From the IMG/VR virus record IMGVR_UViG_3300035698_021428: DNA of 49,956 nt; one strand, 5' to 3'. Every line of letters starts with the position of its first letter. Position 1 is the first letter of the stretch. Below the pieces are notes generated by a model. It did no database searches. It had not been told where the DNA came from and was given only the letters and a program-made list of their open reading frames with translations. This DNA comes from a virus. Made by a program: the position numbers and the translations under genes. Below are positions 18,579 through 38,157 of the stretch, piece after piece.

Positions 18579-19538
18579 ATGACCGATCTGGTGACGTTTT
18601 CAAACTTTTTCATGATTTCTGGTTTTCTTTTGGCGGCTTATTCTGTAGTAGCCAACGATAGCGTTCAAACGCTTGGAACATTTATGGCCTCCAATAGCCA
18701 TAGGCGATGGTGGGTTCTTTGGTTGTCAGCGTCAGCAGTTCTTGTTGCTACGCTATTATTTAGCTGGTTTGTATATGATGGAGACATAAGTCAGGGGAGA
18801 TTAGACAGCATTCCATATGACGGCAATTTTCAATGGTACCATGCAGTAGCGCCTCTGATTCTTGTTTTCATGACTAGATTTGGGATACCTGTTTCTACAA
18901 CTTTTTTGGTTATCAGCGTATTTGCTAGTTCAGTTGTAATCGAAAAGGTTATATTAAAATCTGTGATGGGATATGGAGTTGCGGCGATAACGGCATATAC
19001 TCTATGGACAGTTTTGAGCAGATTCTTAGACGAACATGATAAAGTCGATCCCAAGAACCGCAATAGATGGTTTATAGCTCAATGGCTAACCACTGGCTTT
19101 TTGTGGTCTACCTGGTTGAGTCATGATATGGCAAACATCGCTGTCTACATGCCTCGGCAACTAAGCTTTCCATTGCTTCTAGTCGTCTTTGTTGTTCTTA
19201 TTAGCGGTTTGGCTATGACCTTCAAGCTTCGAGGCGGCAGGATCCAGAAAATCGTTCTCGACAAAACAGGCACTCGATATGCTAGAAGCGCGACCATTAT
19301 CGATTTCGTCTTTGCATGCATTCTCTTAGTTTTCAAAGAATGGTCCACGATACCAATGTCAACGACCTGGGTCTTCGTTGGTCTGCTTTGCGGTCGAGAA
19401 TTAGCGATTCATGCATCAGTAAAATTCGAGAGTACGAAAGCCGTATTCCCCATTATTGCCAAAGATTTTGCCAAGGTTCTTGTTGGGCTTGGCGTATCGC
19501 TAGTTCTTGTATGGATCATTCAAGGGACAAAAATATAG
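18579..19538 (+). CDS. polytopic membrane protein (319 aa), tentatively PiT/PHO4-like transporter
   Basis: About 9 hydrophobic segments. 'VVANDSVQTLGTF' and 'SHDMANIAVY' weakly resemble the duplicated GANDVAN signature of PiT phosphate transporters. Confidence 0.6.
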   Translation: MTDLVTFSNFFMISGFLLAAYSVVANDSVQTLGTFMASNSHRRWWVLWLSASAVLVATLLFSWFVYDGDISQGRLDSIPYDGNFQWYHAVAPLILVFMTRFGIPVSTTFLVISVFASSVVIEKVILKSVMGYGVAAITAYTLWTVLSRFLDEHDKVDPKNRNRWFIAQWLTTGFLWSTWLSHDMANIAVYMPRQLSFPLLLVVFVVLISGLAMTFKLRGGRIQKIVLDKTGTRYARSATIIDFVFACILLVFKEWSTIPMSTTWVFVGLLCGRELAIHASVKFESTKAVFPIIAKDFAKVLVGLGVSLVLVWIIQGTKI

Positions 19539-20069: not shown

Positions 20070-21881
20070 ATGATTATTGAACGTCAGTTTGAAAGCGCAT
20101 TTTATCATGCTCCCATTGGATTCGCTATCGTCTCTTTCGAAGGATTGTTTTTACGAGTCAATAAGGCTCTCGAAGATCTTCTTGGCTACTCAGAAGAAGA
20201 ACTACTACGAATAACTTTCTATGACATAACTCATCCTGATGAACAAATACTCGGTAGGGAATGTATCGCAGAACTTATGAGCGGCGAGAAAGATTTTTGC
20301 CAGTTCGAAAAACGGTACATCCACAAAAACGGTCAATCAATATGGTGCCTGCTCAACACTTCCGTTGTTCGCAACGAGCGGAATGAACCTGTACATCTAG
20401 TTTCTCAAATACTAAACATACACGAGAAAAAAGAAGTTGATCTAAAACTACATAGAGAAAAACAACAGACTCAAAAAATACTTGATGCTATGGACTCTTT
20501 TATCTGGCATAAAGATACCAATAACAATATTCTTAGAACCAATAAAAAGGTAGCAGACAGTCTTGGCCTTAGAAGATCTGATATTGAAGGTCATTGTTCA
20601 ACTGAGTTTTACCCTATGGAATCGAAAAAACCGATATTTGGAATAACAGAACCAGTCTCTACCAAGAATGGCAAGAAATGGGTTTCAACTGACAAGATTC
20701 CAATGTTTGATGATGATGGAGAAGTTACAGGCATACTCGTTGTTTCAACTGATATAACCGAGATTAAACAACAAGAGCAAAAGCTTGAAGAGTATAGCAG
20801 TAGGCTTGAGGTTGCTCTCGATGCTGGCAATATAGGTATTTGGATATGGTATCCTAAAGAAAATCGTCTTGAATGGGATGATCGGATGTTCGATCTTTAT
20901 GGTAGAAAGAAAGATGATTTCAACGGAACTGTTGAAGACTGGTCTCGTTCTTTGGTTGAAGAAGACAGAGACAATGCCTGTGATAACATAGATCAATCGT
21001 TAGAGAAGGGCGTCCCGTTTATTAGCGAGTTTAGAATTCTAAAAAACGGAGAAATTCGGCACATTACAGCTTATGCGCTTCTTGAGTTAGATGACGAAGG
21101 CGAAATTGAAAGCATGATTGGCGCAAATTACGACATAACCGATATGAAGCGGACTGAGGCCAATCTAAGGAGATCCAATGAGGATCTTGAAAGGTTCGCC
21201 TATGCTGCGTCGCACGACCTTAGAGAGCCTCTTAGAACGATCAAGGGTTTTGCTGACCTGTTAGATTCTAAGTACAGCGACGGTTTTGATGAGACTGCTG
21301 AAAAGTACATGGCCTTCATAAAGCAAGGTTGTCTAAAAATGGAAACCCTCATTAACAGCCTGCTTGCTTATTCCAGAGTTGACAGAGATATGGAGTCTGA
21401 CGAAGTAGATGTCGATATGAATGCCACTGTCAGGACAGTATGCGAATCTTTGATGGCAAAAATAGCAGAGAATGATGCAGACATAGAATGGGATAAAAAT
21501 TTACCAGTAATACAGTCAAATTCTAATCTGATGTTTCAGCTATTGCTAAATCTTATAGGCAATGCGGTGAAGTTTAAAAGCGAAGACAGACGATGCAAGG
21601 TATGTATTACTTGCGAAAACTATGATACTGATGACGAGTTTTTAAAGTTTTGTGTCAGAGATAATGGTATAGGTATCGAGGAAAAATTCCAAGATCGTAT
21701 ATTTGAAATCTTTCAACGATTACATGACAGGTCTATGGAAGGGACAGGCGTTGGTTTGGCTCTTTGCAAGAAAATAGTAGAGAATTTTAATGGAAAGATA
21801 TGGGTGGAATCTGAGTATGGAAAAGGATCGTTATTCTGTTTTACACTCCCTAGGGGAAAGACTATCAATAAGAATAACTAA
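20070..21881 (+). CDS. cytoplasmic multi-PAS sensor histidine kinase (603 aa)
   Basis: Three PAS-like repeats. H-box 'FAYAASHDLREPLRTIKGF'. N box 'LLLNLIGNAVKF'. G1 'VRDNGIGIE'. G2 'GTGVGLALCKKIV'. No TM segment. Confidence 0.9.
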   Translation: MIIERQFESAFYHAPIGFAIVSFEGLFLRVNKALEDLLGYSEEELLRITFYDITHPDEQILGRECIAELMSGEKDFCQFEKRYIHKNGQSIWCLLNTSVVRNERNEPVHLVSQILNIHEKKEVDLKLHREKQQTQKILDAMDSFIWHKDTNNNILRTNKKVADSLGLRRSDIEGHCSTEFYPMESKKPIFGITEPVSTKNGKKWVSTDKIPMFDDDGEVTGILVVSTDITEIKQQEQKLEEYSSRLEVALDAGNIGIWIWYPKENRLEWDDRMFDLYGRKKDDFNGTVEDWSRSLVEEDRDNACDNIDQSLEKGVPFISEFRILKNGEIRHITAYALLELDDEGEIESMIGANYDITDMKRTEANLRRSNEDLERFAYAASHDLREPLRTIKGFADLLDSKYSDGFDETAEKYMAFIKQGCLKMETLINSLLAYSRVDRDMESDEVDVDMNATVRTVCESLMAKIAENDADIEWDKNLPVIQSNSNLMFQLLLNLIGNAVKFKSEDRRCKVCITCENYDTDDEFLKFCVRDNGIGIEEKFQDRIFEIFQRLHDRSMEGTGVGLALCKKIVENFNGKIWVESEYGKGSLFCFTLPRGKTINKNN

Positions 21882-22302
21882 AATACTTCTAGTTGAAGAT
21901 AACCCTGCGGATATAGAACTAACCAAAGAAGCTCTGAAATGCAAAACATGTCAACCTAGCTTACATGTTGTTACTGATGGAGAAAAAGCTATACAGTTTC
22001 TCCTAAACGAGGGAGATTACAAGGATTCTCCTAGACCTGATATTATTTTTTTGGATCTCAACCTTCCAAAAATGTGCGGAAAAGAGGTTCTTTCTATCAT
22101 AAAATCGAACGATGAATTGAAAAGTATACCTGTTATCGTTTTAACAACTTCTGAAAATGAGATTGACATAAATCAGACGTACCAAATGCATGCTAATTGC
22201 TATATTAGAAAACCTGTTGATTTTGAGTCTTTCAGAGAAGCTATACATTCAACAAAGAGTTTTTGGTTTACAGTTGCTAAACTACCGGAAAGCGAGAAGT
22301 AG
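21817..22302 (+). CDS. stand-alone CheY-like response-regulator receiver
   Basis: 'ILLVEDNPADIELTKEAL...PDIIFLDLNLPKMCG...PVIVLTTS...HANCYIRKPVDF'. The start is ATG 21817 or 21790, overlapping the kinase 3' end. Confidence 0.85.
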   Translation: MEKDRYSVLHSLGERLSIRITKILLVEDNPADIELTKEALKCKTCQPSLHVVTDGEKAIQFLLNEGDYKDSPRPDIIFLDLNLPKMCGKEVLSIIKSNDELKSIPVIVLTTSENEIDINQTYQMHANCYIRKPVDFESFREAIHSTKSFWFTVAKLPESEK

Positions 22303-22304
22303 CA

Positions 22305-22745
22305 ATGGACACGACTAGCGTTCTTCTTCTTGATGATGATCATGCATTTGCAAATTTGTTCAAAGAACACCTAACTGATCACGCCAAGGATCACTCAAAT
22401 ATAGAGCTTACTCACGTTGATTCGCTAAAAGCTATCGAGCTAGAGCAGCCTTTTGATATTTATTTTATTGATCACAGGCTCTACGGAAGACCTGCTTCCA
22501 TTGAAATTGTAGAAAGATTAAAAAACGCCGGTTTCGGTGGAAAGATTTTTGTTGTTTCTAAATATGGTGATTTTGATCTTCTCAAAGAACTCATGAAGCT
22601 GGGAATAGACGGGTTCATTGATAAAGATGAGATAAATTACGAAGAACTTGTCAGATTCATTGATAGTTTAAATGCTACTAAGTCTCTGCTTCGTAACCTG
22701 AACAATAAATTCGAAGAGCTAAAAAAGAAGCCTACAGACAGGTGA
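22305..22745 (+). CDS. second receiver-domain-like protein (146 aa), divergent
   Basis: 'VLLLDDDHAFANLFKEHL...FDIYFIDHRL...FVVSKYGD'. Starts 2 nt after the previous stop. Confidence 0.65.
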   Translation: MDTTSVLLLDDDHAFANLFKEHLTDHAKDHSNIELTHVDSLKAIELEQPFDIYFIDHRLYGRPASIEIVERLKNAGFGGKIFVVSKYGDFDLLKELMKLGIDGFIDKDEINYEELVRFIDSLNATKSLLRNLNNKFEELKKKPTDR

Positions 22746-23436: not shown

Positions 23437-26127
23437 ATGCAAGACAATGATTCCGGCGCAATCCGAGGATCATCAGGCGATCTTTTGATCCCTGAAGGTT
23501 CATATGCTCATTTTTAAGGACTAACAACTGGCGCAATTTCGACCAAGGTTGGGCCTGCAAGCGTTTCGCAATCGGGGCAAGAACGTCCTGTTGCGTTCGA
23601 TCCAGCAAGGCGACAATTCATTGAAGTTAGCCGAGAAAGTTCGGTCAAACTCAATGTTATCGCTGATGAAACCAGTTATGTTATTCTTTCAAATCCGTGC
23701 ATTGCAGTCGCAGACGGCGATGACCAGCTTATTTTTCCAGGATCTTCGGACAAGATTCCCAATCAAGGTCTAGAGAGCGGTCGAAAAGTTGTGGTTCATG
23801 GACCTGTCGAATTTTCGCTTTGGCCTGGACAGACTGCAGAAGTTGTCCCGGGTCATGCTCTTCGCTCAAATGAATATCTTGAACTTGTTGTTTATGATGC
23901 TGATGAAGCAAAAGCCAACTGGGAATCAGCCTCCGTTGTTGAGACCAAGAAAACTGGCGGCGATAAAGAAGATAAAGATGATACGCAGGTTACGTCTACT
24001 GCCCCTGCTGATCTTCTTATGGGACAACGATTGGTTGTCAAGGGAACTGAGGTTTCATTCTATCGTCCTCCAACTGGTATACAGGTTGTTCAGAACGAAG
24101 ACAATATCTTTATTCGACAAGCTGTTTCCCTTGAATTACTTGAATACTGTATTCTTATCGACGAAAATGGCAACAAAAGGTATGAGAAGGGACCAGCAGT
24201 TGTTCTTCCTCGTCCATCTGAACGATTTGAAAAAAGCTCTAGAGGCAATAGAAAATTTAGAGCCATTGAGCTTCAAGACCAGGCAGGCGTTCATATCAAA
24301 GCGCTCAAGACCTACCAGGATGACGACGGAAAAGATCGCAAAGCTGGTGATGAATTCTTCTTGACGGGCAAAGATCGTCCTATCTACTACCCTCGCGAAG
24401 AAGAAGCCGTTATTCCTTATAGCGATGGCGAAAAGATTCACTTCGCTGTTGCGGTTCCCAAGGGGGAAGGCCGCTACGTTATGAATAAGACCACCGGTGA
24501 GATCGCAACGATCATCGGCCCCAAGATGCTTCTTTGCGATCCGACTAATGAAGTCATCGTTCGTCGCATCCTTACTGACAGACAAAGTAATGATTGGTAT
24601 CCTGGTAATGATAACTCTAGGCAATACAATCGCAATCTTCGAGAGATTCAGGAAGCTGCAGGAACGGCTGGTGATTTTGTTGACGATACATCAACACGGC
24701 AGGCAGCAACCAGGGGGCTTCATTCGCTGCGAGAAAAAGGCAATCCAAGAGTAGGCGGAGCTTCGTTCTCAAGTATGTCCGCTTCCGCCGGATCGGAACG
24801 AGGTTTTGAAAGCTTCGAACAAGCTGGTTCAGCAATGATGGGAGAACTAGATCGGCCATCAAGCTATACAGAACCCAAAAGCATTACTCTTGATACACGT
24901 TTTGCAGGAGTTCCTGGTATTGAGCTTTGGACAGGCTACACCGTTATGGTCGTTGACAGAGAAGGAAACCGCCGAATCGTCAGCGGTCCAACCAATATTC
25001 TGCTCAATTATGACGAGTCATTAGAAATCATAGAACTTTCTACCGGCAAACCAAAATCAACAAAAGGATTGATTCGCACAGTATATCTTCGCAGAGATAA
25101 TAATAAGGTTTCCGATTATGTTGAAGTTGAGACAAAAGACCATGTGAAAGTACAAGTAAAACTGTCATTCCTGGTCAATTTTGTTGAAGACAATCCTAAT
25201 GACGATCAGGATGATACCGATTATCAAGAGCGTTGGTTTGCTAGCGAAAACTATGTCAAGCTTCTTTGCGATCATGTTCGCTCGATTCTTAAGGGCGAAG
25301 CTAAAAAGCACGATATCAATAACTTTTATATCAACTCAACATCTATCATCAGAGATATCATTCTTGGTAATCGTCAGGAAGATGGCAGAACAGGTATGTT
25401 CTTTGAACATAATGGTATGCATGTTATCGATGTTGAGGTTCTTGGAACAGAAATTCTTGATCACAGCATTGCTTCGCTACTTACTGGCTCTCAGCGAGAA
25501 GCAGTTGAATCAAGTATTCGTCTTCAGTCTGCCGAAAGAACGCTTAATGTAACTGAGCAAATGGAAGCGATGTCTCGTAAAGAAGCAGTTGCTAAGAATG
25601 AGACCAAGAAGCACGCACACGATCTAACGATAGAAAGCATTGGAAGAACTCTGAAGGAGTCCCTAGCAGACATATCTTCAGAACAAGACAAGTCCGTTCA
25701 TAGGCTTACTGCTCGTACTGCCGAAGCTGAAGCTACTAAAATGGCAAACGTTATTGAGGCCGAAGCTGCGGTCGCAGGAAGCGAGATTGAGCGAGAAGAT
25801 CAGAAACTCGATCATGAACAGAAAATCTTAGAAGCAGAAGAAATAGCTAGGCTTGACAAGGAAGCGATTGAAACCGAAGTCAAGGCCACAGTTGATAAGC
25901 TCAAGGCCCTTGAAGGTTCGGGGTTGACCGACGTTCTTGCTACGCTTGGTCGAGAAGACTTCTTGACCCGTATAGCTGAATCCAGCAATCTTGAACGATT
26001 GATTGGCGGAGCTAGCGTCCAAGATACTTTGACCGGAATTTTCGGCGTTGAGTCGCCTATTGCTAAGGCGTTCGTTGCTATCAAGGCAGGAAAGCCGCTT
26101 GCTCAATCTTTGCTCAATAGCGACTAG
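23437..26127 (+). CDS. major vault protein (MVP) homolog: vault repeats, SPFH-like shoulder and cap-helix (~896 codons) with one in-frame TAA at 23515-23517
   Basis: GGAGA RBS plus ATG 23437. 'LLIPEGSYAHF*GLTTGAISTKVGP..ERPVAF' vs human MVP '[25 protein letters not shown]..ERVLF'. 'GDEFFLTGKDRPIYYPREEEAVI' vs '[21 protein letters not shown]'. 'YVMNKTTGEIATIIGPKMLL' vs '[20 protein letters not shown]'. E/A/K-rich C-terminal helix. The track ORF 23791 starts at an internal GTG. Confidence 0.8.
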
Positions 26128-26158
26128 TAACGGCTGATATCAGCGATGATACGATTCA

Positions 26159-26188
26159 GAGCCTCCGTCTTTTGGCGGGGGCTCTTTT
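26159..26188 (+). terminator. rho-independent terminator after the MVP gene
   Basis: Stem gagcctccgtc/ggcgggggctc, loop tttt, then TTTT. Confidence 0.8.
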
Positions 26189-26302
26189 ATTTGTGTATCA
26201 TGTGAATAAAATATATGATAGAATAAACTTTGTACTAAAAGGCGGACAAGGCGCTGCCACTGACGAGGAAAATGTGCCGATGGGATAGTAGAACAATAAA
26301 CT

Positions 26303-26655
26303 GGGGGCGATATGGAATCGCTTCAGTAGGGTAGGAAGGATTGTTGCGAGCCGGGGAACCATGCTTAGGCCCCGTAAAAAAGTATGGAATAATTAGTTGC
26401 CAACAGCAACCCACTCCGCATCGCTGCTTGACAGCGGTGCCTGCAAGTCCTGAACGCCGATACGGGATACGCAGAAGATTTTCGGCTGGTCGTCTGAACA
26501 ACTGTTTCAACCAACAGACGATGAGATAAAGGATGAGACCGCTCCCTGTCGCAGACTGTCGCTGGTCGGCTAGGGGCTAAGATAAAACATCGACTACGCT
26601 CGTAGAAACGCCCAACAAACTACTGAACACGGCGGTTCGAATCCGCCCGCCTCCA
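26303..26655 (+). ncRNA. ssrA: tmRNA (SsrA), tag ANSNPLRIAA
   Basis: 5' GGGGGCGAUAUGGAAUCGC.. pairs with 3' ..GGCGGUUCGAAUCCGCCCGCCUCCA (G3:U70, T arm). The tag ORF GCC AAC AGC AAC CCA CTC CGC ATC GCT GCT TGA lies at 26399-26431. Confidence 0.85.
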
Positions 26656-26664
26656 TTTAGAAAG

Positions 26665-26690
26665 CCCGTATCCGCAAGGATGCGGGTTTT
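26665..26690 (+). terminator. rho-independent terminator after tmRNA
   Basis: cccgtatcc-gcaa-ggatgcggg followed by TTTT. Confidence 0.85.
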
Positions 26691-26760
26691 CTTTTGCGCA
26701 AATAAAATCTTCAGGTGCCCAGACGGTTATGTATAATGCATTTTATCAAGGAGCCAACAA

Positions 26761-26994
26761 ATGCGATTCATTCAATGGTTTATGCAATTGTTTATCGTTC
26801 CTCCTAAATCAAAACAGAAAAGAGCGTGCCTGGCCTGCGGCTGCATAGGAGACTATAACGATACTTCCTGGCACTGTTCTGTCGCTTCTATTGGGAGAAA
26901 TATTATAGAAGATGATTTTTGTCCTGATTGCAAAATAATGATTATTGAAAAATATGGCGAAGATATTCTTACACCAGTCGTTACTAGCAAGTGA
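26761..26994 (+). CDS. small zinc-ribbon-like protein (77 aa)
   Basis: AGGAG RBS. 'CLACGC...CPDC'. Confidence 0.55.
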   Translation: MRFIQWFMQLFIVPPKSKQKRACLACGCIGDYNDTSWHCSVASIGRNIIEDDFCPDCKIMIIEKYGEDILTPVVTSK

Positions 26995-27019
26995 TAGTAG
27001 CTCTTGTTATAATGTATCC

Positions 27020-27337
27020 ATGAATATCATCACTATCAACGGCAGACGATTTGAGGTCGAAGGAAATAATGTTTCCATTAGCAACGGGTGCGTGTCTGTT
27101 GATGGCAATCATGTTCTTGAGATATCAGGCGATATTAAAATCAAATGGCAAGGAGACCTGGCTAACCTGGAATGCGATAGATCAGTTAACTGCCATGATA
27201 TTAAGGGGAATGCATCTGCCGGCGGTTCTATCAATTGCGGCGATGTCAATGGCTCTGTTAAGGCCGGCGGCTCTGTCAACTGCGATGATGTAGGCAAATC
27301 TGTTAGCGCTGGCGGCTCTGTCAGAACGAATCAGTAA
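27020..27337 (+). CDS. beta-helix repeat protein, bactofilin-like (105 aa)
   Basis: Repeats 'AGGSINCGDVNGSVKAGGSVNCDDVGKSVSAGGSV'. TATAAT at 27008-27013 lies 6 nt before the ATG and there is no SD. Confidence 0.45.
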   Translation: MNIITINGRRFEVEGNNVSISNGCVSVDGNHVLEISGDIKIKWQGDLANLECDRSVNCHDIKGNASAGGSINCGDVNGSVKAGGSVNCDDVGKSVSAGGSVRTNQ

Positions 27338-27400
27338 AAGAGGTTGTTTAGGGCTGGATCAGTATTACTCTTTAGTGGATTATCGCTAAGGAGATATATT

Positions 27401-28564
27401 ATGGGTAGATTCCAAGACCTGATCGCAACTTCTGGTAGTATTGTAAATCTCAAAAATAAATTAGCATCTAAAGATGTTACTCCGAATAGAACTATTTTCT
27501 CTGCGCAGCTTCTTGCAAAACAAAAAGCCATTGTAGGTAAAGCTGTAGTTTCTATGCCTTTTACTGGCGTCAATCAACCGATTGAGCATCCAGATTTTAC
27601 TTACGACTATTTCATTAGCAATTTCTATTCTATGTGGCTCACCGGAACAAGCGATAATTTTGATAATATGAGTATGGGATGGGGAATTCCTACCAGAGGT
27701 TATCCTTACTTCTTTGATAATCTTATTCAACCGCTTATAGATAAAGGTTGTAAACGGTTTCATATCCATCTTCCTCACGGAAGACTGACGCCAGGAGTCA
27801 TGGATTTTTCTTCTTTGCTTCTTGCTATGGAAAACGGAAAGGATTTTGCTTACGAAGGTTTTTACGAAGCATTAGATGAAATTTATCTAAGCAATCCAGA
27901 TATAGTTTTTCTTTTGTACTTCGGGACAGTTCGTCTTGAGCGATATTTTCGAGATGCGCTTGACGAAAATAGGGTTGGAGATTGGATCAATAGAGCAATT
28001 GATAGCATTTTACCTGCTATTCATTCTCCGAATGTAGACATAGGGTTTGATGCTCCAATGGGAGATCCTGCTTCTTGGCCTCAAGATAATCCGGTATATC
28101 ATTTTATATCTTTAGTCAGGGCTCTTAAAGCAGAGCAAGGACGAGAAGTATATGTTGAGCCCCGACAACATGCTACAGGAACAAATTGGTTTGATTTCAA
28201 TGTTCTTAGCATAGAATCATTTTGGAACAGATCTGATCCTGATAGACATCAGGATGCTTCATGGGCAATTCATAACGGAGATATTCAAGCAAATGTTCTT
28301 CGAATGGATCTAACTCCTCTTCCGAAAGAAAACGGAGTAGTAACAGATTGGAGAACCTGGCTTCCCCAAAGAATTTCATCCATCATGATTGAAGACAAAT
28401 CCGGCAAACATCCATACATACATTCTCATGGACTTCATAGAGTTGCTGTCATGAATCCTCCTTCAACGGGTTCATATGGCCCCTTGGCAGAAAATATGAG
28501 AGAAATCTACGAAGCGACTATATCGTATGCTCAAGCCAATGGATCTTTATCTCCAATACAATAA
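27401..28564 (+). CDS. hypothetical protein (387 aa)
   Basis: AAGGAG RBS plus ATG 27401. No motif recognised. Confidence 0.65.
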   Translation: MGRFQDLIATSGSIVNLKNKLASKDVTPNRTIFSAQLLAKQKAIVGKAVVSMPFTGVNQPIEHPDFTYDYFISNFYSMWLTGTSDNFDNMSMGWGIPTRGYPYFFDNLIQPLIDKGCKRFHIHLPHGRLTPGVMDFSSLLLAMENGKDFAYEGFYEALDEIYLSNPDIVFLLYFGTVRLERYFRDALDENRVGDWINRAIDSILPAIHSPNVDIGFDAPMGDPASWPQDNPVYHFISLVRALKAEQGREVYVEPRQHATGTNWFDFNVLSIESFWNRSDPDRHQDASWAIHNGDIQANVLRMDLTPLPKENGVVTDWRTWLPQRISSIMIEDKSGKHPYIHSHGLHRVAVMNPPSTGSYGPLAENMREIYEATISYAQANGSLSPIQ

Positions 28565-28831
28565 TATATTACTTCCTGTAAGTTACAGAAGCCTAGCTGA
28601 ATACCGCCTCGAATAGGGGTTGTAGACAGTTTTTATTGGCGTGGAATAGTAGGTAGATGCCTTTTGGCTCGCCGATACATCTGAATCACTAGTAATAGCT
28701 AGCTTATTTTCAATATGGCTAGCAGGTGAATCAAATTCGACTAAACTTGTCGAACCATGAATCGTCGAACAGGGCTTGCGGCGGAGCCGCTGTTCGTATA
28801 CAAACCGACGCCGCAACAGGAGTGCGAAAGC

Positions 28832-30064
28832 ATGCGACTCAATAAGCTCAGTACGAGCATGACAATCATTGGAATGCTGTCTGCTGCATCTGCCTTTGCG
28901 CAGGATGGTGCCCAGGTCACGAATAGCGAGGACCATCAACGTATGATGTCATCTGAAATAATGAATGACGCAGTATCCCGCAGCGGTACACAATCTGGTC
29001 ATAATGGAAACGGATTCTTTTTCTCAGATCCCGATAGAGACTTCACCCTTAACATCGATGGACAGCTTCAGTTTCGCTACTATGCGAACTTTACTGACAT
29101 GGGAAAAACGGACACAACAACTGGTTTTGAGACGGCTCGAACAAAATTGAGATTTAGCGGCGATGTCAACACCTTCGATTATACAGTTGAAGGTGTTTTT
29201 GCTCCGTCAGGCGGCGGGTTTATGCTGCAAGACGCATTCTTCGGTCACTCTCTAGGTAGCAATGCCAACGTTCAGGTTGGTCAGTTTACGCTACCATTCA
29301 TGCGAGAACAGAACGTTGACAGTAGATATCAGCTTGCTGTTGAACGATCAGTTACCGATGCCGTATTTAATCAGGGCAGAGGCCAGGGTTTGCAGTTGAC
29401 GTTTACTCCTGTGGATATGGATAATGTTCGCTTTACAGCGGCATTCAGCGATGGGTTTAGCACGGCTAACACAGCGTACACATCTTCAATGGAAGCTGAT
29501 TACGCAATTACTGGTCGTTTAGATTGGCTCGCCGCAGGCGAATGGTCTCAGTTCGACGACTTTACTTCTCAACAAGATGAAGATTTTGGTTTCCTTGTAG
29601 GCCTTGCTGGTCACCTGCAGGAAGGCGGCGAAACTGGCGGAACTATGGACACTAAAATGTTCAGTTATACTGCAGATGCTAGCGTTGAGAATGGAGGGTT
29701 CAGTGCCTTTGTTTCAGGCGTTACTCGTTCTACCGAAACTACGGCAACTGAGTTCGATGATTTCGGGCTGGTCGCTCAAAGCGGTTTTAGGGTTACTGAA
29801 AAAGATGAACTATTCGCTCGATGGGATGCTGTCTACGCTGATAGCGATCGTGGTCTTACGAATGATGAGTTCAACTATCTGACCGCTGGCTACAATAGGT
29901 ATCTTGCTGGACACTCAGCTAAGTTCACAGCCGATGTTGTTTATGCTGTTGATGATACTGCTGGTATCGGAAGTCTGACCTCATCCCTTGGCGGACTTGG
30001 AATAATGAGCAGCATGGAAAGCGAAGATGTAGCCTTACGAGTACAGCTACAGCTTCTTTTCTGA
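28832..30064 (+). CDS. outer-membrane beta-barrel porin (porin O/P-like), 410 aa
   Basis: Signal peptide 'MRLNKLSTSMTIIGMLSAASAFA|QDG'. Alternating beta-strand pattern 'FTLNIDGQLQFRYYANF'. C-terminal '...LRVQLQLLF' with terminal Phe. Confidence 0.75.
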   Translation: MRLNKLSTSMTIIGMLSAASAFAQDGAQVTNSEDHQRMMSSEIMNDAVSRSGTQSGHNGNGFFFSDPDRDFTLNIDGQLQFRYYANFTDMGKTDTTTGFETARTKLRFSGDVNTFDYTVEGVFAPSGGGFMLQDAFFGHSLGSNANVQVGQFTLPFMREQNVDSRYQLAVERSVTDAVFNQGRGQGLQLTFTPVDMDNVRFTAAFSDGFSTANTAYTSSMEADYAITGRLDWLAAGEWSQFDDFTSQQDEDFGFLVGLAGHLQEGGETGGTMDTKMFSYTADASVENGGFSAFVSGVTRSTETTATEFDDFGLVAQSGFRVTEKDELFARWDAVYADSDRGLTNDEFNYLTAGYNRYLAGHSAKFTADVVYAVDDTAGIGSLTSSLGGLGIMSSMESEDVALRVQLQLLF

Positions 30065-30094
30065 TCTGATAGCGACATCTAAATCGTATTTGAG

Positions 30095-30131
30095 CGACGG
30101 GCTGCACGGATTGCGGCTCGTCGTTTCTTTT
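30095..30131 (+). terminator. rho-independent terminator after the porin gene
   Basis: Stem cgacgggctgc/gcggctcgtcg, then TTTCTTTT. Confidence 0.7.
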
Positions 30132-30197
30132 AACTGGTGTAGCTTTTTTTTGATATGATACACGCTTGATAGCAAAGCATATAGAAAAGGAAATGAA

Positions 30198-30446
30198 ATG
30201 CCTTACGATCCTCGACATCATTCTGAAGGCGGTAATAGGTCTACGACCAATGACGATCTTCAGGCACTAACTGGAGAATACAGAGTTGTTCTGGTAGACA
30301 CTTTCGATGGTAGCGATTGTGTTATCGGGAATTATAAAGACCTTGACGAAGCTACTAAAATAGCTGATAAAAAAGGCGGGCAAATGACTATTGTATATGT
30401 CTATGATAGCGCAGGAAAGATAGTATATAGCGCAGGTAGTTTTTAA
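30198..30446 (+). CDS. hypothetical protein (82 aa)
   Basis: AAGGAAA RBS plus ATG. Confidence 0.55.
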   Translation: MPYDPRHHSEGGNRSTTNDDLQALTGEYRVVLVDTFDGSDCVIGNYKDLDEATKIADKKGGQMTIVYVYDSAGKIVYSAGSF

Positions 30447-30700
30447 TGTTTTCAAATAGCTTGATTCGTATTCGTCATTTACAATTAAGCGAAATTCGCG
30501 CCCGTCTCATTCGTACTCGAAAGTTACTCACTCTATCTGATTCTCCAAAGACAAACAAAGAAATCATGACACAAATGTTTCTTAACCAACAGATTATGGC
30601 CGAGATGTTCGAAGGGCTTCTTCCTGAGCTTCCTGCCTCGTCAAACAACGAAGATATCACCGAGCAATCGGAATCTTTTAAGGAAGTTATTCAGGCCTAA
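30446..30700 (+). CDS. hypothetical protein (84 aa)
   Basis: TAATG coupling to the previous gene. Confidence 0.5.
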   Translation: MFSNSLIRIRHLQLSEIRARLIRTRKLLTLSDSPKTNKEIMTQMFLNQQIMAEMFEGLLPELPASSNNEDITEQSESFKEVIQA

Positions 30701-30722
30701 AGACAAAAGTACAGGAGTAGTT

Positions 30723-30977
30723 ATGAATAGCGATAAAAAGAATATGCCAACAAATATGGCATATCGAGATGTAGACTGGTCTATTGTTTATGAAGTAGAG
30801 AAAATTTGCACGGTTAGCGAAACTATTGTTATCAATTTTATCAACGGCAAAAGTTTTCGTGTTGCGCTACCAGGGGTTTTAATGAAGGCTATGATTCAAC
30901 ATGGTGTAGATAAAGCCGAAAAACTCTTCATTGAACAAGACCTTGATCGGGATGATAAAGAGCACGGGCTTTACTAG
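30723..30977 (+). CDS. hypothetical protein (84 aa)
   Basis: AGGAG RBS plus ATG. Confidence 0.55.
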   Translation: MNSDKKNMPTNMAYRDVDWSIVYEVEKICTVSETIVINFINGKSFRVALPGVLMKAMIQHGVDKAEKLFIEQDLDRDDKEHGLY

Positions 30978-31079
30978 TTAATATCTGCTCAAATCGTCAA
31001 AAACAAGCCACTGACGATCATCTGGTGAAGTCTTTTTGGATAGAATAACGTTTTCGATTCCTAGATAAGAAAGACCCTA

Positions 31080-32729
31080 ATGGCAACCAAACTTGGAAAA
31101 GGCGAGTATCCCAGCGATCATTCGCCAGAAGACTTTAAATGCTTTGGCCCTCCTGCTCAGGAAGACGGTCAGTTTGACGGCATGATGATGGCTGACATGG
31201 GCTGCTTCAAGCAAGATGGTACAGATTCCAACAAATTCTACCATGGCGCAGTTGTTCAATCCAAAAAAGATGATAGCTGGTATGCCTACTATGAATGGGG
31301 CAGAACTGGGAAAGGTTCTTCTGATAAGCAATTCGTTTGTTGTTCGTCGAAAGAAGAAGCTGAACAAGTATTCTGCAAGCAGATGCACTCCAAAAATGAC
31401 AAGCGAGGCGAATGGGTCAAGATAGGCAGTAAAGACATTCTAAGAGCGAAGACAGGCAAAGACTGCTACCTTATCCGTCCGCTCGCAAAGCGATCTCATG
31501 GCCTTCCAGACGCTCAGACAATCGTCCATGACGATAGCGGCAAAGCTGGCAGCGCCGTCGCTAAGAAAACAACCAAAAAGACCGGAAAGAAAACCAGCAA
31601 AAAGATTGCTAAGAAAAAATCAAACGTTGATCCAAAGACTCTTAGTCTTATGAAGGATATGAACGTTGCAGCGGTTGAATTTACTCGCTCGCAGGTTGAT
31701 AGCGATGCAGTCCCAACTCAAGGCGTTATCGATGAAGGCAGAGATGTTCTTATCGAAGCGGAAAAAAGAGTTAAGAAAATTGGATCAAAGCTTGAAGAAC
31801 AAATTAGCGATAGAGACCTTCGAGATCTAACGTATCATCTCTATTCTCGAATCGGGAAGCCAAAGCCTCTCAATACGCTTGAATCTGCCTGGATTCTTTC
31901 TCAAGACAACATCATGCGTTGGCGAATGGACCTTGATACATTTGAGCAGGCATTATATGCTCTTGACCTAGGCATTGGCAGCGATACTCAGAATACCTTT
32001 GATCCGTTCAATGGCATGAATATTGAGATGATTCATCTCGACCCGACTAAAACGGCTGAAGGTCAATTTATTCACAATTGGATGCCTGGCGCAACGAAAA
32101 ACGTCCACGGGCACGTTGGCGACATGAGTATTGTCAACGCATGGGGCGTTCGTCAAACTGATTTTGCACCAAAATTTGAAGCAACTGCTGCAAAGATTGG
32201 TAATCGCAATTTCACCCCATCTGACAAACCTATCAAGCAGCCCCGAAAACGATCTGATATCTCGCCAGAAATGGCTAAACTATTCGATCAAGCAAATGTC
32301 AATCTCTTATTCCATGGAACAAGATCTGTCAATGTTCCTGGCATTCTTCGCACAGGGCTAAGGCTCCCCAGAGAGCTTGTTGGAGTTGTCCTTACTGGCG
32401 CAATGTTTGGACCCGGTATCTATTGGGCCGATGATTGGAAAAAATCAGACGGTTACACTTCTCGACCAGGAACTTATTGGTCAAGAGGCGGGGGACAGGT
32501 CAAAGGTCGCAAGGCTTTTATGTTTGTTGCCAATGTTGCTCTTGGCAATCCTCATATTGCTCGCGGTCCTCAAGGATATACTGCTCCGCCGAAAGGTTGC
32601 GATTGTGTTGCAGGTCTTGCTAATAAGAGCAGCGTAGCCAACAACGAATGGATTGTTTACGACAGTATGCAAAATTCTCTTACATATCTTATTGAATACG
32701 AAGTTTCAGGCAGCAGCCGTCGCTGGTAA
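31080..32729 (+). CDS. poly(ADP-ribose) polymerase-like protein: WGR, Lys-rich linker, helical regulatory domain and PARP catalytic domain (549 aa)
   Basis: WGR 'FYHGAVVQSKKDDSWYAYYEWGRTGKG'. Linker 'AKKTTKKTGKKTSKKIAKKKS'. Catalytic H-Y-E triad: 'LLFHGTRSVNVPGIL', 'FGPGIYWADDW' and 'NNEWIVYDSMQNSLTYLIEYEV' (PARP1: '[22 protein letters not shown]'). Confidence 0.9.
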   Translation: MATKLGKGEYPSDHSPEDFKCFGPPAQEDGQFDGMMMADMGCFKQDGTDSNKFYHGAVVQSKKDDSWYAYYEWGRTGKGSSDKQFVCCSSKEEAEQVFCKQMHSKNDKRGEWVKIGSKDILRAKTGKDCYLIRPLAKRSHGLPDAQTIVHDDSGKAGSAVAKKTTKKTGKKTSKKIAKKKSNVDPKTLSLMKDMNVAAVEFTRSQVDSDAVPTQGVIDEGRDVLIEAEKRVKKIGSKLEEQISDRDLRDLTYHLYSRIGKPKPLNTLESAWILSQDNIMRWRMDLDTFEQALYALDLGIGSDTQNTFDPFNGMNIEMIHLDPTKTAEGQFIHNWMPGATKNVHGHVGDMSIVNAWGVRQTDFAPKFEATAAKIGNRNFTPSDKPIKQPRKRSDISPEMAKLFDQANVNLLFHGTRSVNVPGILRTGLRLPRELVGVVLTGAMFGPGIYWADDWKKSDGYTSRPGTYWSRGGGQVKGRKAFMFVANVALGNPHIARGPQGYTAPPKGCDCVAGLANKSSVANNEWIVYDSMQNSLTYLIEYEVSGSSRRW

Positions 32730-32743: not shown

Positions 32744-34927
32744 ATGCAAACTATTATTCGTCAAAGTCTTTCTGAATCAGAACTCCTTGATATGGCTAGA
32801 CAAGGTTGCACAGAAGACGCTATTCAAGATGATGGTAAAAAATTAACTCATTATCAAAATTCTGGCACCAATTATGCAGAGTCTCTTGGATTAAATCCTA
32901 AACGATATGAAATCGTTGCAAATGTAATCTATCCATCAAGAAACAGTAGAAATTATTTCTTCGGTCATCATAACACTCAAGAAATACCTGATAATGCAAA
33001 ATTGTTCTTAAAAGCTTCTTACAGCCGAGAACACTATAATGATAAATCAAAAGAAACAGTTCACAGATCTAAACTTTTGTTGAAAAACTTTTGTTTCAAG
33101 CATATCCAGCGACCACGGCATGACGGGTATAACTACGTTAGTCTAGACAAACAAAAATTTATTGCATGCGGAACCATTGAAATCGATGGCAAAGATATAC
33201 TCCTTCAAGGCGATTTTTCATTCTTCGTTGAAGCATTCGGCGTAACTCTAACCAAAGAACTTAAGCTTGACTGGGGCCAAGACAGTTCTCCAATGTTCGA
33301 TGATCTCCCCGCAACTATTTCCTGTATTAGTTATCTAAACGCTTGCTCTGGTCCCTATGGCTACTATGAAGAAAAACGGGATAGAAATAATTCTCAGTTC
33401 AATTTTGATTCCAGTGGCATATATGCCCTTGTTAGTAATTTCGGGTCTGACAAAACTATTATCAGCAATTTTCTTCATGGAATTCTTGCTGCAGGAATCG
33501 TTCCTCAAGCTATAGAGCCCAAAGGAATCTCCAAGATCTATAATAAAATCAGTGAGTATGCCGAATCATTGATGAAGACAGACCCGTATGCGGCATGTTG
33601 TTATCGACAGATTGCTAGGGAAGCAAAACGAACAATCAATAGCGTTAAGGTATCAGTTGTCTATAATGAACTTTTCGCTGGCGTTGACTCGGCAGAAACT
33701 CTCAAGTCTGTTCTTGAACCGTTTGAAGAATCGATGAGCGACCCAAGCAAATACAATGCGTTTGAGAATGCTCTTTCTGGTCTAGGAGCATTCAAGGATC
33801 GTCGTCGTAAAGCTCTAAAAAGTCAAGGGAACAGGGCTCTAACGAAAATCATGGAAGAGAAAGAATCTCTGACCTTTGATTTGAAAAAACACAAACGTCT
33901 TAATAAAGCTATTGAAGCTGGTGACATTCCCATCGGAACATTTTTCCGCAAAAAAGAACAGTTCTTTATTCTCAATGACAACTGGGATCTTTGGGAAAAG
34001 ATGCTCGCGCTCGATTACGATGTTACTGTCAAATTAGCTCAGGAAGTTTCTCGCAGGTCAACCTACGAGAAGGATCTGATGTCCTACTTCTATTTCGTAT
34101 TGGTCGATCTGCCAGCATACCTCAAGAAGCATACAGGATACAAATGGTCATGTATGCCAAGACTGGTTGACAGCGAAAGAGAACTCGAAGCGCCCAAAGT
34201 TGATGAGACAGGAACCGCTCGTTCTCGCTCTGCTCTAACGCCGATCGTTGACAACGATGCTAAAACCGTAACGGTTCCCTATGCGTCTCTCGCGATCGCC
34301 GGACGACAGACAACATATTGCTACAGTCATACCTATATGGCGATTCGCAAAGGTCTCATGTTCAATGGCAACGTCTCCACAGAAGATCTGGGAGAAAAGC
34401 TTAATGGTCGAGACGACTATGGGCTCATGTTCTATACATTGACTGGATCTTTCCAAGGTAGAGGATACCCGACATTTCTTATTATCTTCGAACGTCATTC
34501 TAAAAATGGCAGTAAAGATACAACTGTCCACTTTCATCGGGTTCATCCCAGCCGTTCCAAAGATGGCGACTATAACCCTATTCATAACTGGATTCGGGTC
34601 TGTTATAATTGGATGGCTGGCAATATCAACGCCAAGCGAATTAGGGCGCAGCAAGGCGATTTGTTCTTTGTTTCGACAGACAAGACTCCTGAGTTCGATA
34701 CTCGCGTTATGCAGTATGACAATCACAGGTTTGATAAGCCTGTTGGTTTCTCTCCATACGAAGGCAAGGATAAGAACATCCTTGGCTATATGAAGCTTGA
34801 CGAACCACTGACGCTAAACCATCACGAGCATGATAACGAGAATGTTCCTGCTGGGATCTTCGAGGTACGGCAATGCCGTAGCTGGGAAGCCAACCCCAAG
34901 GGCATTTGGACGATTAATATCGATTGA
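32744..34927 (+). CDS. large uncharacterised protein (727 aa) immediately downstream of the PARP
   Basis: AGGAAA RBS. 14-nt gap after the PARP stop. No PARG (GGG..QEE), macro or other motif recognised by eye. Confidence 0.7.
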   Translation: MQTIIRQSLSESELLDMARQGCTEDAIQDDGKKLTHYQNSGTNYAESLGLNPKRYEIVANVIYPSRNSRNYFFGHHNTQEIPDNAKLFLKASYSREHYNDKSKETVHRSKLLLKNFCFKHIQRPRHDGYNYVSLDKQKFIACGTIEIDGKDILLQGDFSFFVEAFGVTLTKELKLDWGQDSSPMFDDLPATISCISYLNACSGPYGYYEEKRDRNNSQFNFDSSGIYALVSNFGSDKTIISNFLHGILAAGIVPQAIEPKGISKIYNKISEYAESLMKTDPYAACCYRQIAREAKRTINSVKVSVVYNELFAGVDSAETLKSVLEPFEESMSDPSKYNAFENALSGLGAFKDRRRKALKSQGNRALTKIMEEKESLTFDLKKHKRLNKAIEAGDIPIGTFFRKKEQFFILNDNWDLWEKMLALDYDVTVKLAQEVSRRSTYEKDLMSYFYFVLVDLPAYLKKHTGYKWSCMPRLVDSERELEAPKVDETGTARSRSALTPIVDNDAKTVTVPYASLAIAGRQTTYCYSHTYMAIRKGLMFNGNVSTEDLGEKLNGRDDYGLMFYTLTGSFQGRGYPTFLIIFERHSKNGSKDTTVHFHRVHPSRSKDGDYNPIHNWIRVCYNWMAGNINAKRIRAQQGDLFFVSTDKTPEFDTRVMQYDNHRFDKPVGFSPYEGKDKNILGYMKLDEPLTLNHHEHDNENVPAGIFEVRQCRSWEANPKGIWTINID

Positions 34928-34993: not shown

Positions 34994-35386
34994 ATGAATG
35001 GCGCAAAAGAATTTGATCAGACAATTGGAGCAGAAGGACACCGTATTCCTCGCAACGCAACGATGCTTTCCCAGCAGTTGACGAATATGGGATTCAAAAA
35101 AGTCAGGGCGCAGTGGACTGTTAAGTTCACAGCCGAGGCTCCTGACGGATCTGGCCGTTTAACCAAGAGCATCGTCGGAACGGTTGATAAACAGGTGCAT
35201 GGCAACGGTCCTCGTGCAATCGGTGGAAATGGCCAAACAGGTTTGTCTTCTGCTATCGCCAATTCAACAGGCGGAGGGAATGTATCAGCAGTTCCCAAAT
35301 CCGCTGCTAGTTCAGCAACTACTACCGCCCCTGTTCTTCCCAGCGCATTCGGCAGAGGCGGGATCGATAGAGGTTGTGGCGACTGA
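34994..35386 (+). CDS. hypothetical protein with Gly/Ser/Ala-rich C-terminal half (130 aa)
   Basis: ORF track. Confidence 0.5.
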   Translation: MNGAKEFDQTIGAEGHRIPRNATMLSQQLTNMGFKKVRAQWTVKFTAEAPDGSGRLTKSIVGTVDKQVHGNGPRAIGGNGQTGLSSAIANSTGGGNVSAVPKSAASSATTTAPVLPSAFGRGGIDRGCGD

Positions 35387-35417
35387 TTTCAAATAAATAA
35401 TTCCTTTCTGAAATTAG

Positions 35418-35443
35418 CCCCTGGTCTCCGGATCAGGGGTTTT
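35418..35443 (+). terminator. rho-independent terminator
   Basis: cccctggtc-tccg-gatcagggg followed by TTTT. Confidence 0.85.
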
Positions 35444-35513: not shown

Positions 35514-38157
35514 ATGAGTATTCCACAAAATGCAGATCTTTCCATAGTATCTCAAGCTGAAGCCGATCGCCACAAGATGGTTACAGATAATAATGAAGTT
35601 GGAGGAACAAGGGCATTTGTTTCAAATCCTGATTCAAATTTCTCATTTTCTCATCCGAAGGTTCTTCAGCTTGGAAATACCACATCAAATAAAGACGCTG
35701 TTCTTGCGTATCGAATTCTAGTAGTAGAATCAGGCGGGAAAGCAAAGACCCCAGATTTTAATTGGCATTCTGGTATATTTTCTACAGGAGAAAATCTTCG
35801 GGTAACTCATAACGGATCATATTATTACCAGTTTAGAACAATGTGGGATGTTGGCACAAGCGGAAGCTTACCAGAAGGAACAAGTATTATTGAGCTTCTT
35901 GAAATGTATTCCACTGCTGAATCAGCAATTGCTTCAACGCAAAAAAATTGCTTTTTATATTCAAAAAAGCAGCGGCGTAAATCACTTAGTCTGCAAGCTT
36001 GCTGATCCTAATATAGGATACGAAGATCCCACAGAACTATTGCAAAATGGTGTTTGGTATGATATAAGAATGAAATATAAGCCAGAAACAGGAAGCTCAG
36101 CAGATGGAATTTTGCTTGTAGAACAAAAACTTGCGACAGCTAGCTCATGGACTACTTTGATAAATGTAACAAATCATACTCAGAATGCTGATATAATGTG
36201 GGTAGAATATCAGCACAAGGCCTCAAGCGGATTGTCTCCAGGCATAACATCTTCTAAAACCTGGATTGCTTCTAGTTATCAAAGATTAGATAGTTTTGAG
36301 GCTGACGATTATGAATATAATAGATTTAGAACGTCAACGTGCCTGGACGTATCTTCGTCTATAGCTAAAATTAGAGTTCACTGCGATGATGAAACAATTG
36401 ATACATCTTCTGGAGGGTTTATTGTTCAATACGGAACAAATTCGACTTTATCATCAGGTGTTATTGATTCATCCTATACAGCTTTTAGCGCTAGAACCCA
36501 TGACTGCGCTACCGTATCTCTAACTTCATTATCTGCTGATACAAGATATTATTACAGGTTAAAATTTCAAGATGACGAAAGTTCTCCTACCGATACTTAT
36601 ACTGTGCCAGAAATACGGTCATTCAAAACTCTAGCAACTACTACTGGCGGAACTCGAAAAATACTAATTGGAGGATGTAAGGGGCACGCAGGATGGAGAG
36701 GCGGCAATGCTGCTTTCGATCACTTAATAGCTGCTGAAGGCACTCCTGACATGATAATATTCAATGGAGACATGATATATGATACAGACCTAACGCAATT
36801 GGGTTCAGGAAATAGCGACTATGAACTATGGGACTTAACTGAGGATAATTATTCATCAGCTTATAGACTTTCATTTGGAGAATATGATTTCGCAAAAATA
36901 CTTTCTGAATGCGCTTTCTTTGGGATGTGCGAAGATCATGAATTCTTTAATTCATGTGATGGTAATATGCGAGGGCAAGCAGTCAATATGGGATTAGCAG
37001 TTGATAATGCTGGAACAGCATATCCTACTTCTCATATGAATACAACATATCTAAACGGAGGCGGCGCGCCAGTTACAGCCGATGGTATATTCACCATAGC
37101 CACTGATGTTATGGCGTCATGGTGGGGAAACGGAACAATAAACGCAGCCGACTCTGGTTCAGGACGAGATTATTATCGTTCGTTTGAGCATGGTAATGTA
37201 TTAGTTCTTATGTTAGATACCAGAACACGAAGCACTGCAACTAGCCTAATTACATCAGCACAAGAGACATGGATTCAAACAACTATAGCAGCTTCGGACG
37301 CCAAATATATTGTTATTAGTAGCCCCGCTTCATGGGGAGATTATCTTATCAATATAAGTCCAGCCGAGGCATGGGGAAGCAATGCAAATCTCAGAGCGCA
37401 ACGTGCTAGTATATTTAACTGGATAAAAAACAATGCTTCTGATAAAGTAGTTTATCTTATAGGCGGAGATAGGCATACTCCTTATGTTGCGTATCCTAGC
37501 GATTTAACCGGACCAGATGGTCCTCTCAAAAGAATTGCAATGGCATCGCCATTTAACCAAGATAACAATTTCAACACAAGCGCTATTACCGCAATGGCAT
37601 CTGACCCATCAGTCGTATCAGTTATAAGTACCGATGATTATACTGGCTTATCAATGGTCAGAACTTCTGGTTTATTAGTAGAAATTGACGAAGCAACGGA
37701 TACCGTTCGATTAGTTATGTATGATGATAATGGAAATAAATTGATAGATGAAAGCGACTCCTATGCATTATCAACCGAAACCAGTAATGAAATATCAAGG
37801 GCCATATCTATAACAACGGCTCCTACGCACATACCTTCTCCGACCTTTTCTCTAGCAGGAACAAGCTATGCAACAAGATTTATTGATCCGAACATAGAAG
37901 CTATGATAACAAAGCAAAATCTAAATGCGCCTGTTAGCGTTTCCTTTGAATCAGTAACTAATGATTATGAAATCCGCTATACCACAAATAGCAATAGAAA
38001 TCCAACAAGCAAGAGTATTCTATATTCTGGTCCTTTGAGCATAAGTAGAAACTTGACTGGCGTTGATAATACTGTTGTTAAAGCCAGGATATTCCACAAA
38101 AATAATCCTGGAATTCATAGCCGTATAACTAAGTTAGAATTCAACGTAATTATGTGA
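35514..38157 (+). CDS. LamG-like plus PhoD-like metallophosphatase (alkaline phosphatase D family) fusion, ~880 aa, read across a +1 frameshift at an A7 run (35941-35947)
   Basis: Track ORFs 35514..36005 and 35848..38157 overlap. Removing one A gives '...AIASTQKIAFYIQKSSGVNHLVCKLAD'. PhoD_N-like 'LSADTRYYYRLKF'. Metallophosphatase motifs 'FNGDMIYD' and 'GMCEDHEFFN'. Confidence 0.7.

Follow-up and report, generated by a model that had tools for sequence, protein, structure and literature searches.

A major vault protein homolog and a WGR-type PARP encoded near each other in a huge-phage-type genome

Do the major vault protein (MVP) and a PARP-family enzyme belong together in viruses, as they do in the eukaryotic vault? 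The DNA analyzed here, a stretch of 49,956 nucleotides from the IMG/VR virus record IMGVR_UViG_3300035698_021428 (the window), carries on its plus strand a gene of the MVP family at 23437-26127 and, 4.95 kb downstream, a gene for a PARP1-like enzyme at 31080-32729. The linkage of these genes is real and recurrent, but facultative and not that of an operon: they lie 1.4-11 kb apart in seven genomes, namely the window, four relatives in which the gene order is conserved, and two more distant lineages. We consider it probable that MVP and PARP, the latter a putative nucleic-acid-activated ADP-ribosyl transferase (ART), are linked accessory genes of a huge-phage clade and not obligate partners. 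The initial annotation of the window had noted that both genes lie within 5 kb, which is correct, and had read them as a possible vault-like module. What stands of the module is that the pair recurs in seven genomes, whereas its facultative nature, the lack of an operon and the absence of the other vault components speak against it.

The two genes and the premature stop codon

The frame at 23437-26127 consists of 26 codons, an in-frame TAA and a further 869 codons ending at a TAG. In the 869-residue part, Pfam recognizes MVP_shoulder (6.4e-25, profile positions 2-118 of 118, above the gathering score) together with the repeats Vault_3 (4.1e-8, 33.7 bits against a cut-off of 28.8) and Vault (7.4e-7, 29.5 bits against 27). 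With phmmer, this part matches the solved MVPs of human, rat and rabbit (6.8e-25), its cap-helix region aligning with the human cap helix. Identity to eukaryotic vault MVP is only 17-19%; to proteins from Myxococcota it is ~43% over the full length, and these have the same Pfam set (Vault_3, MVP_shoulder). The best of 2384 homologs, 55% identical, is encoded on a contig of ~498 kb.

An AlphaFold2 model of the monomer, built on 34 homologs (pLDDT 71, pTM 0.43; residues counted from 23518), displays a β-rich repeat array at residues 1-350, a disordered insert at 403-455, a mixed α/β shoulder at ~528-648 and a single continuous cap helix of ~150 residues at 649-798 (pLDDT about 70-81). This closely parallels human MVP, for which we take the shoulder to span residues 520-646 and the cap helix 647-802. 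When the model is compared with the PDB by Foldseek, the first 12 matches are full-length vault MVP chains (E 5e-31 to 2e-24), while crystal structures of the murine repeats R1-R7 match at 3e-11 and the SPFH proteins flotillin, HflK/C and prohibitin at 5e-7 or worse. As full-length vault folds rank far above SPFH proteins, the protein is more than a generic member of the latter group. Thus, 23437-26127 is a genuine MVP-family gene of the bacterial/phage type with repeats, SPFH-like shoulder and cap helix, as initially annotated; Pfam, phmmer and the AlphaFold2 model with Foldseek agree on this point.

The likeness of the shoulder to SPFH proteins could nevertheless mean that the protein acts as an SPFH/band-7 scaffold at a membrane, comparable to the cages of HflK/C, flotillin and prohibitin, and forms no free vault. 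The Foldseek matches of the shoulder to such proteins (5e-7 to 1e-4) point in this direction, as does the homolog in the huge phage LR756500, which also matches Pfam Band_7 (5e-6). However, full-length MVP matches better by more than 20 orders of magnitude, and these matches cover a repeat array that is absent from SPFH proteins and whose Vault and Vault_3 repeats exceed the Pfam cut-offs. The translation shows no hydrophobic anchor at the N-terminus, and we regard the scaffold function as highly improbable.

While the initial annotation was right in assigning the frame of ~896 codons to the MVP family, it missed the in-frame stop, and the gene is not an intact open reading frame (ORF). Codon 27 is a TAA (23515-23517, plus strand), which in the alignment stands opposite a Gln shared by all 11 homologs (...YAY[FM]Q...) and encoded by CAG in three relatives. 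Since the coding sequence is conserved both in the 26 codons before the TAA and in those after it, the ancestral gene begins at 23437 and the window copy carries a nonsense codon; a frameshift is excluded, as the conserved frame is identical on both sides. Recoding of the TAA was considered and rejected: all three stop codons end ORFs in the window, with MVP itself ending in TAG; the suppressor-type tRNAs of the window have the anticodon CTA, which reads TAG and not TAA; and other same-frame ORF pairs split by a single stop proved to be overlapping genes, tRNAs or intergenic DNA. As the TAA is the sole lesion across 896 codons, it reflects either an inactivation that happened very recently, a variant within the population, or an error of assembly or sequencing.

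Is the MVP of the window, then, a recently inactivated pseudogene with no vault-related function, so that the nearby PARP reflects nothing but inherited synteny? The position of the stop at an invariant Gln argues for this, as do the two CTA tRNAs, neither of which reads TAA, and the lack of TAA recoding elsewhere in the window. Standard ORF calling starts MVP only at the GTG at 23791, and use of this next in-frame start would cost ~118 N-terminal residues. The base after the stop is moreover a G, and we take TAAG to be a context in which termination would be efficient. Yet a pseudogene with a lone lesion in 896 codons and full conservation on either side could only be of very recent origin. 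It is just as likely that one base was wrongly assembled or sequenced or that the stop is a minority variant, and the relatives retain intact genes for MVPs of 890-916 residues. On balance, a dead gene is a real possibility, but not the one we expect.

For the gene at 31080-32729 (plus strand, 549 residues), the assignment as a PARP1-like enzyme with a WGR domain and an H-Y-E triad is borne out by Pfam matches to PARP (8.7e-21) and WGR (2.8e-7, 31 bits against a 22-bit cut-off). Both families are also matched by all five MVP-linked or related phage PARPs that we aligned (best WGR 7.7e-13), among which H412, Y448, E523 and the WGR motif are invariant; their helical regions align as well, with Q214, E219, I258 and D286 invariant. 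The best solved relative of the window protein is PARP1 (6e-12), to which its HG[ST]R and G.Y[FW]A motifs align, PARP4 matching only at 6e-7. Its Pfam domains are WGR and PARP only; BRCT, VIT, vWA and MINT are absent from the 549 residues, and its architecture is therefore not that of PARP4. Judged by its sequence, the gene is predicted to encode a PARP1/2/3-like enzyme of WGR-helical-ART build with intact H-Y-E triad and NAD+ site. It has 809 homologs at E<=1e-10, many of them on contigs of 0.2-0.6 Mb, and its best match among phage records is a full-length homolog in the huge phage LR756511.

Recurrent but facultative linkage of MVP and PARP

Beyond the window, the gap between the two genes measures 11.1 kb in the 498-kb relative 3300020429_000529, 5.2 kb at locus L260 (a 212-kb contig), 6.9 kb at L261, 6.8 kb at L007 (a 258-kb contig), 6.2 kb in LR756500 and 1.4 kb at L011, where PARP lies upstream. 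The order MVP, porin-like gene, PARP is conserved in one huge-phage clade, and the intervening genes vary from genome to genome. The PARPs of L011 and LR756500 are only ~25% identical to that of the window, and a rough neighbor-joining tree places the LR756500 MVP at a great distance from the rest. Both genes were found on five IMG/VR contigs and are within 12 kb of each other on four of them; naive uniform placement gives P ~8e-4 for this proximity, which becomes ~0.02 when related genomes are merged and a short contig is dropped.

In LR756500, genes for an ATP-grasp protein, an AAA ATPase, an RNA ligase, an HD-kinase and DFP stand between PARP and MVP on one strand, and a Macro-domain gene follows just beyond MVP, two genes away. 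The full run (locus L003, LR756500 10000-42000; 8930-20872, minus strand) reads PARP, R2K ATP-grasp, AAA ATPase, RNA ligase, HD plus AAA_33 kinase, DFP, MVP, two unassigned genes and Macro, which looks like a set for RNA repair and ADP-ribose. R2K ATP-grasp genes are also found 5-8 kb upstream of MVP at L261 and L262.

The linkage is far from obligatory. At 44 of the 47 IMG/VR MVP loci there is no PARP within 10 kb, and none is near MVP at any of 80 bacterial genome loci, mostly from Myxococcota. Another 80 loci from metagenomes contributed just two cases: L231, where the PARP is 100% identical and the contig is that of L011 again, and L184, with a WGR match on its own. MVP, in turn, is absent at ~20 full-length PARP loci on contigs of up to 572 kb, where the conserved neighbor is the porin-like gene; the block from this gene to PARP occurs without MVP in at least seven loci. 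Clustering of 2480 neighboring ORFs from 130 loci revealed no universal MVP partner, and the large clusters in this set were rejected as partners, being an antisense-ORF artefact and generic kinases.

How might the two proteins act as accessory factors? In the infected cell, intact MVP would self-assemble by means of its cap helix and so form a soluble shell resembling a vault. Nucleic-acid ends would activate PARP through its WGR domain, and the activated enzyme could use NAD+ to ADP-ribosylate host or phage targets, a putative step of takeover or counter-defense. A coupling between the two, for instance by a shell that binds NAD+/ADP-ribose or houses the products of PARP, is possible, but that MVP and PARP truly cooperate seems to us rather unlikely.

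Several points weigh against seeing MVP and PARP as linked accessory genes of this kind. We know of no prokaryotic or phage vault particle that has been visualized, so that the assembly of a cage rests on homology and on the one monomer model described above. With its interrupted MVP frame, the window genome may produce no shell whatsoever. In the helical region, PARP_reg (PF02877) is matched by one of the five aligned phage PARPs (6.2e-6), which is not the window protein. Terminator-like sites, called as consensus matches only, number 14 where 10.4 ± 2.9 are expected. Finally, proximity that is conserved at MVP identities of 36-55% while the intervening genes change exceeds simple synteny, and may point to a tighter functional link than we assume.

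The strongest form of such a link would be an integrated device, in which an MVP shell and the WGR-PARP cooperate as a compartment for host takeover or anti-defense, functionally analogous to the vault with PARP4. Such a shell might concentrate NAD+/ADP-ribose, or enclose PARP or its targets. The proximity in seven genomes, which includes divergent PARPs and a distant MVP branch, and its statistics agree with this idea; so does the Macro domain, an ADP-ribose reader or eraser, near the MVP of LR756500. Yet one gene usually occurs without the other in phages, PARP is missing from the bacterial MVP loci, the two genes of the window are set apart by predicted terminators and a tmRNA gene, and no additional domain, MINT-like or other, is present by which the phage PARP could dock in a cage.

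The nucleotide pocket of the vault can be read both ways. In human MVP, the keyhole-loop core R504-P-K506 contacts the diphosphate of NAD+ (PMC12280208), and ADP-ribose is natively bound at the vault shoulder (bioRxiv 10.64898/2026.05.01.722283). In the alignment, human R504-P505-K506 is matched by K511-P512-K513 of the window protein, the core G-[KR]-P-K being kept. Across 34 MVPs of phages and bacteria, P512 and K513 never vary, and K511 hardly does. However, the remaining pocket residues, mapped from the phmmer alignment, are mostly replaced (H509 by K, L517 by R, F522 by K, W545 by V and K573 by D). Moreover, the residues with which MVP binds PARP4 occur only in vertebrates and represent a late addition in eukaryotes (PMC12280208), so that any MVP-PARP link in phages would be convergent rather than inherited. 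Taken together, we think an integrated device unlikely. The broader proposal that the huge-phage clade builds a vault-like shell which works with PARP, and in LR756500 also with the Macro protein, as an NAD+/ADP-ribose compartment strikes us as improbable.

Genomic setting and neighboring genes

The window covers a run of accessory genes from a genome of the huge-phage type; its relatives are viral contigs of ~0.5 Mb as well as the published huge phages LR756500, LR756501 and LR756511. As no virion genes are found inside the window, the label 'huge phage' rests on these relatives. The closest, the 498-kb contig 3300020429_000529 (ENA, IMG/VR and a metagenome set), is 55% identical in MVP and 71% in PARP, and is syntenic in kinase, receivers, MVP, tmRNA, 406-residue protein, porin-like protein and PARP. 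Among 50,697 phage records, tblastn with MVP matches only the huge phages LR756500 and LR756501/3, and megablast with the 12-kb region matches none; a single-sequence scan of IMG/VR gave no match either. The window further encodes glycosyltransferases, a SpoU methylase, an HD protein and a radical-SAM protein, and its RNA genes comprise ten ordinary tRNAs, the two suppressor-type tRNAs and one tmRNA.

The suppressor-type tRNAs are located at 42649-42720 and 45505-45577. Further tRNAs with the anticodon CTA recur at L007 (13658-13732), L052 (18183-18254), L053 (1521-1672), L054 (8334-8410 and 14400-14472) and L055 (1390-1463). TAG nonetheless ends MVP and many other ORFs of the window; the recurrence of these tRNAs may reflect a partial or stage-specific read-through of TAG.

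Upstream, MVP is adjoined by a PAS histidine kinase (20070-21881, plus strand; Pfam PAS_3 2e-31, HATPase_c 2.5e-26, HisKA 1e-11) and two response-regulator receiver proteins (21790-22302 and 22305-22745, plus strand; Pfam Response_reg 6.7e-20 and 1.4e-8), in an order that is the same in the closest relative (L001, 7173-9515). A phage-encoded two-component system is unusual in itself.

Downstream, 31 nt past the MVP stop, follows a terminator-like hairpin (26158-26185, plus strand) with a 12-bp stem, eight GC pairs and a T-rich tail. The tmRNA gene (26303-26658, plus strand; Rfam RF00023, 129.6 bits, E 1.7e-50; 26303-26655 by ARAGORN) begins 176 nt past the MVP stop codon, specifies the tag peptide ANSNPLRIAA and is followed by a second terminator-like hairpin (26670-26687, plus strand) from the consensus scan. 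Next on the plus strand are a repeat-rich protein of 130 residues with GGS[VI]NC motifs (26945-27337; PHROG 3163, function unassigned) and a conserved protein of 406 residues (27344-28564) that has no family match. ORFs like the former directly follow PARP at L060, L053 and L088-L090, in matches that may be repeat-driven, and the latter has a syntenic homolog that is 59% identical at L001/L052 and 42% at L054.

The porin-like gene (28757-30064, plus strand; 435 residues; Pfam Porin_O_P 3.4e-9, NCBIfam porin_ExtI 2e-6, the latter below its cut-off) is the most consistently conserved neighbor of PARP. It lies 2-3.5 kb upstream of PARP at L052, L053, L055, L056, L058, L060, L069 and L072, and 1.8-4.1 kb upstream at L260 and L261; at least eight huge-phage loci have it 2-3.5 kb upstream with no MVP within 10 kb. 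In the window, it is followed by a strong terminator-like hairpin of 15 pairs (30092-30126, plus strand) and by three small ORFs of 82, 84 and 84 residues (30198-30977, plus strand), two of which are conserved at L001/L052 with 74% and 49% identity.

Past PARP, a protein of 727 residues (32744-34927, plus strand) starts 15 nt after the PARP stop. It had been called uncharacterized, and indeed neither Pfam, PHROG, NCBIfam and PADLOC nor a fold comparison yielded a match. Its orphan family is conserved on contigs of huge-phage size. A further ORF of 130 residues (34994-35386, plus strand; 73% identical at L052, 40% at L260), which directly follows PARP in the closest relatives, precedes a terminator-like hairpin at 35416-35441. 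Strong hairpins with T-tracts thus mark the ends of genes at 26158, 26670, 30092 and 35416. The predicted layout is MVP; tmRNA; the 130-residue, 406-residue and porin-like proteins; and the three small ORFs with PARP, the 727-residue and the second 130-residue protein. With these hairpins between the genes, MVP and PARP fall into different predicted transcription units and do not form an operon. No defense model of PADLOC-DB is matched by MVP, PARP or the 727-residue, 406-residue, porin-like and 994-residue proteins.

Some further features of the window and of other MVP loci deserve mention. The porin-like gene is part of a phosphate-type auxiliary cluster with a PHO4-like transporter fragment (18579-19538), a PhoD-like phosphatase (35848-38157) and a histidine phosphatase (43646-44377). 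An ORF of 163 residues (35514-36005) shares 158 nt with the start of the 769-residue PhoD-like ORF, but is read in a different frame; one gene may have been split here by a frameshift, whether genuine or erroneous. The ORF of 994 residues (2131-5115, minus strand), for which Pfam, PHROGs, NCBIfam and PADLOC all gave no match, lies beside a class II aminoacyl-tRNA synthetase of the Asp/Asn/Lys type (649-1803). At bacterial loci, WGR proteins without a PARP domain adjoin MVP (L184, 2905-5997; L116, 7763-7987; L126, 5777-5989); that of L184, 1030 residues long, starts 32 nt past MVP and is followed by an AAA-type ATPase. A Ser/Thr-protein-kinase-like gene directly follows MVP in at least ten Myxococcota-type loci (L121, L124, L125, L132, L144, L150, L170, L173, L210 and L245), whose genomes are very rich in such kinases. 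At viral loci, MVP stands within or beside large tRNA arrays in about nine of the 45 that were scanned for tRNAs (L008, L014, L016, L018, L019, L020, L021, L023 and L048), and has a metallophosphatase gene as neighbor at six viral loci (L011, L025, L028, L030, L033 and L038).

Comparison with known systems

The eukaryotic vault particle consists of MVP, PARP4, TEP1 and vault RNA (rat 4V60, human 9BW5/9BW6). The window resembles it in the MVP, the domains of which are nearly colinear in order and length, and in the PARP-family enzyme encoded nearby. Here the likeness ends, and the analogy to the full vault set that had been drawn from the window fails. The window PARP is of the PARP1-3 type, with WGR and without MINT, and not of the PARP4 type with its domains. 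TEP1-like proteins with TROVE, NACHT, WD40 or vWA domains are not among the ~30 window ORFs scanned with Pfam. The RNA beside MVP was identified correctly as a tmRNA, but it is no counterpart of vault RNA: at gathering thresholds, Rfam recognizes nothing but the tmRNA and tRNAs along the entire window, and hence no vault RNA. As a vault-RNA analog, the tmRNA was rejected, being canonical by Rfam and ARAGORN and adjacent to MVP only in the closest relative and at L029, not at L260, L261 or L262. The gene pair of the window, therefore, does not reproduce the eukaryotic vault particle.

To our knowledge, the function of the vault has remained unknown some forty years after its discovery. Newer studies connect the particle of eukaryotes with NAD+/ADP-ribose chemistry through PARP4, the NADase TEP1 and the nucleotide pocket of MVP (PMC12280208; bioRxiv 10.64898/2026.05.01.722283). 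If the linkage described here is functional, it would offer a simple microbial two-gene system for what an MVP shell does with ADP-ribosylation; if a compartment of shell and PARP exists, it would represent an independent counterpart of the vault-PARP association in viruses of prokaryotes, and an experimentally tractable route to vault function. If the two genes do no more than reside in the same accessory island, they add one more case of auxiliary genes, both of a known kind, to those of huge phages.

Phage PARPs, noted by Iyer et al. (PMC7824862, PMC9503650), have been read earlier as host-modifying enzymes. The window PARP shares the ART fold with H-Y-E triad (PHROG 23333) with phage and bacterial WGR-PARPs, and is 31-42% identical in the catalytic domain to those of the cultured phages XacN1 of Xanthomonas, phi17:2 of Cellulophaga and FBKp34 of Klebsiella. 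It differs from them in its full-length form with an N-terminal extension of ~45 residues, which has 42-71% identity mainly with uncultured huge-phage contigs, in its conserved porin-like neighbor and, in a subset, in the presence of MVP.

Phage MVPs, too, have been described, in the gut phages ctOa11 and ct2Ri15 (bioRxiv 10.1101/2023.11.10.566534), and the view that they were new is outdated. MVP homologs in phages and Myxococcota as well as phage PARPs are thus already known. The pairing is another matter: our literature searches found no description of MVP and PARP together in phages, in line with the initial annotation, and neither vPARP nor TEP1 was found in the two gut phages (bioRxiv 10.1101/2023.11.10.566534). 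What appears to be new is the recurrent linkage of the two genes, at 1-11 kb and with changing genes between them, in several huge-phage lineages. The published phage MVPs share with that of the window the predicted build of repeats, shoulder and cap helix and are likewise much closer to bacterial than to eukaryotic MVP. In contrast to these gut phages, the window belongs to a lineage of aquatic huge phages of the ~0.5-Mb class, and combines a premature TAA in its MVP with a WGR-PARP encoded only a few kb away.

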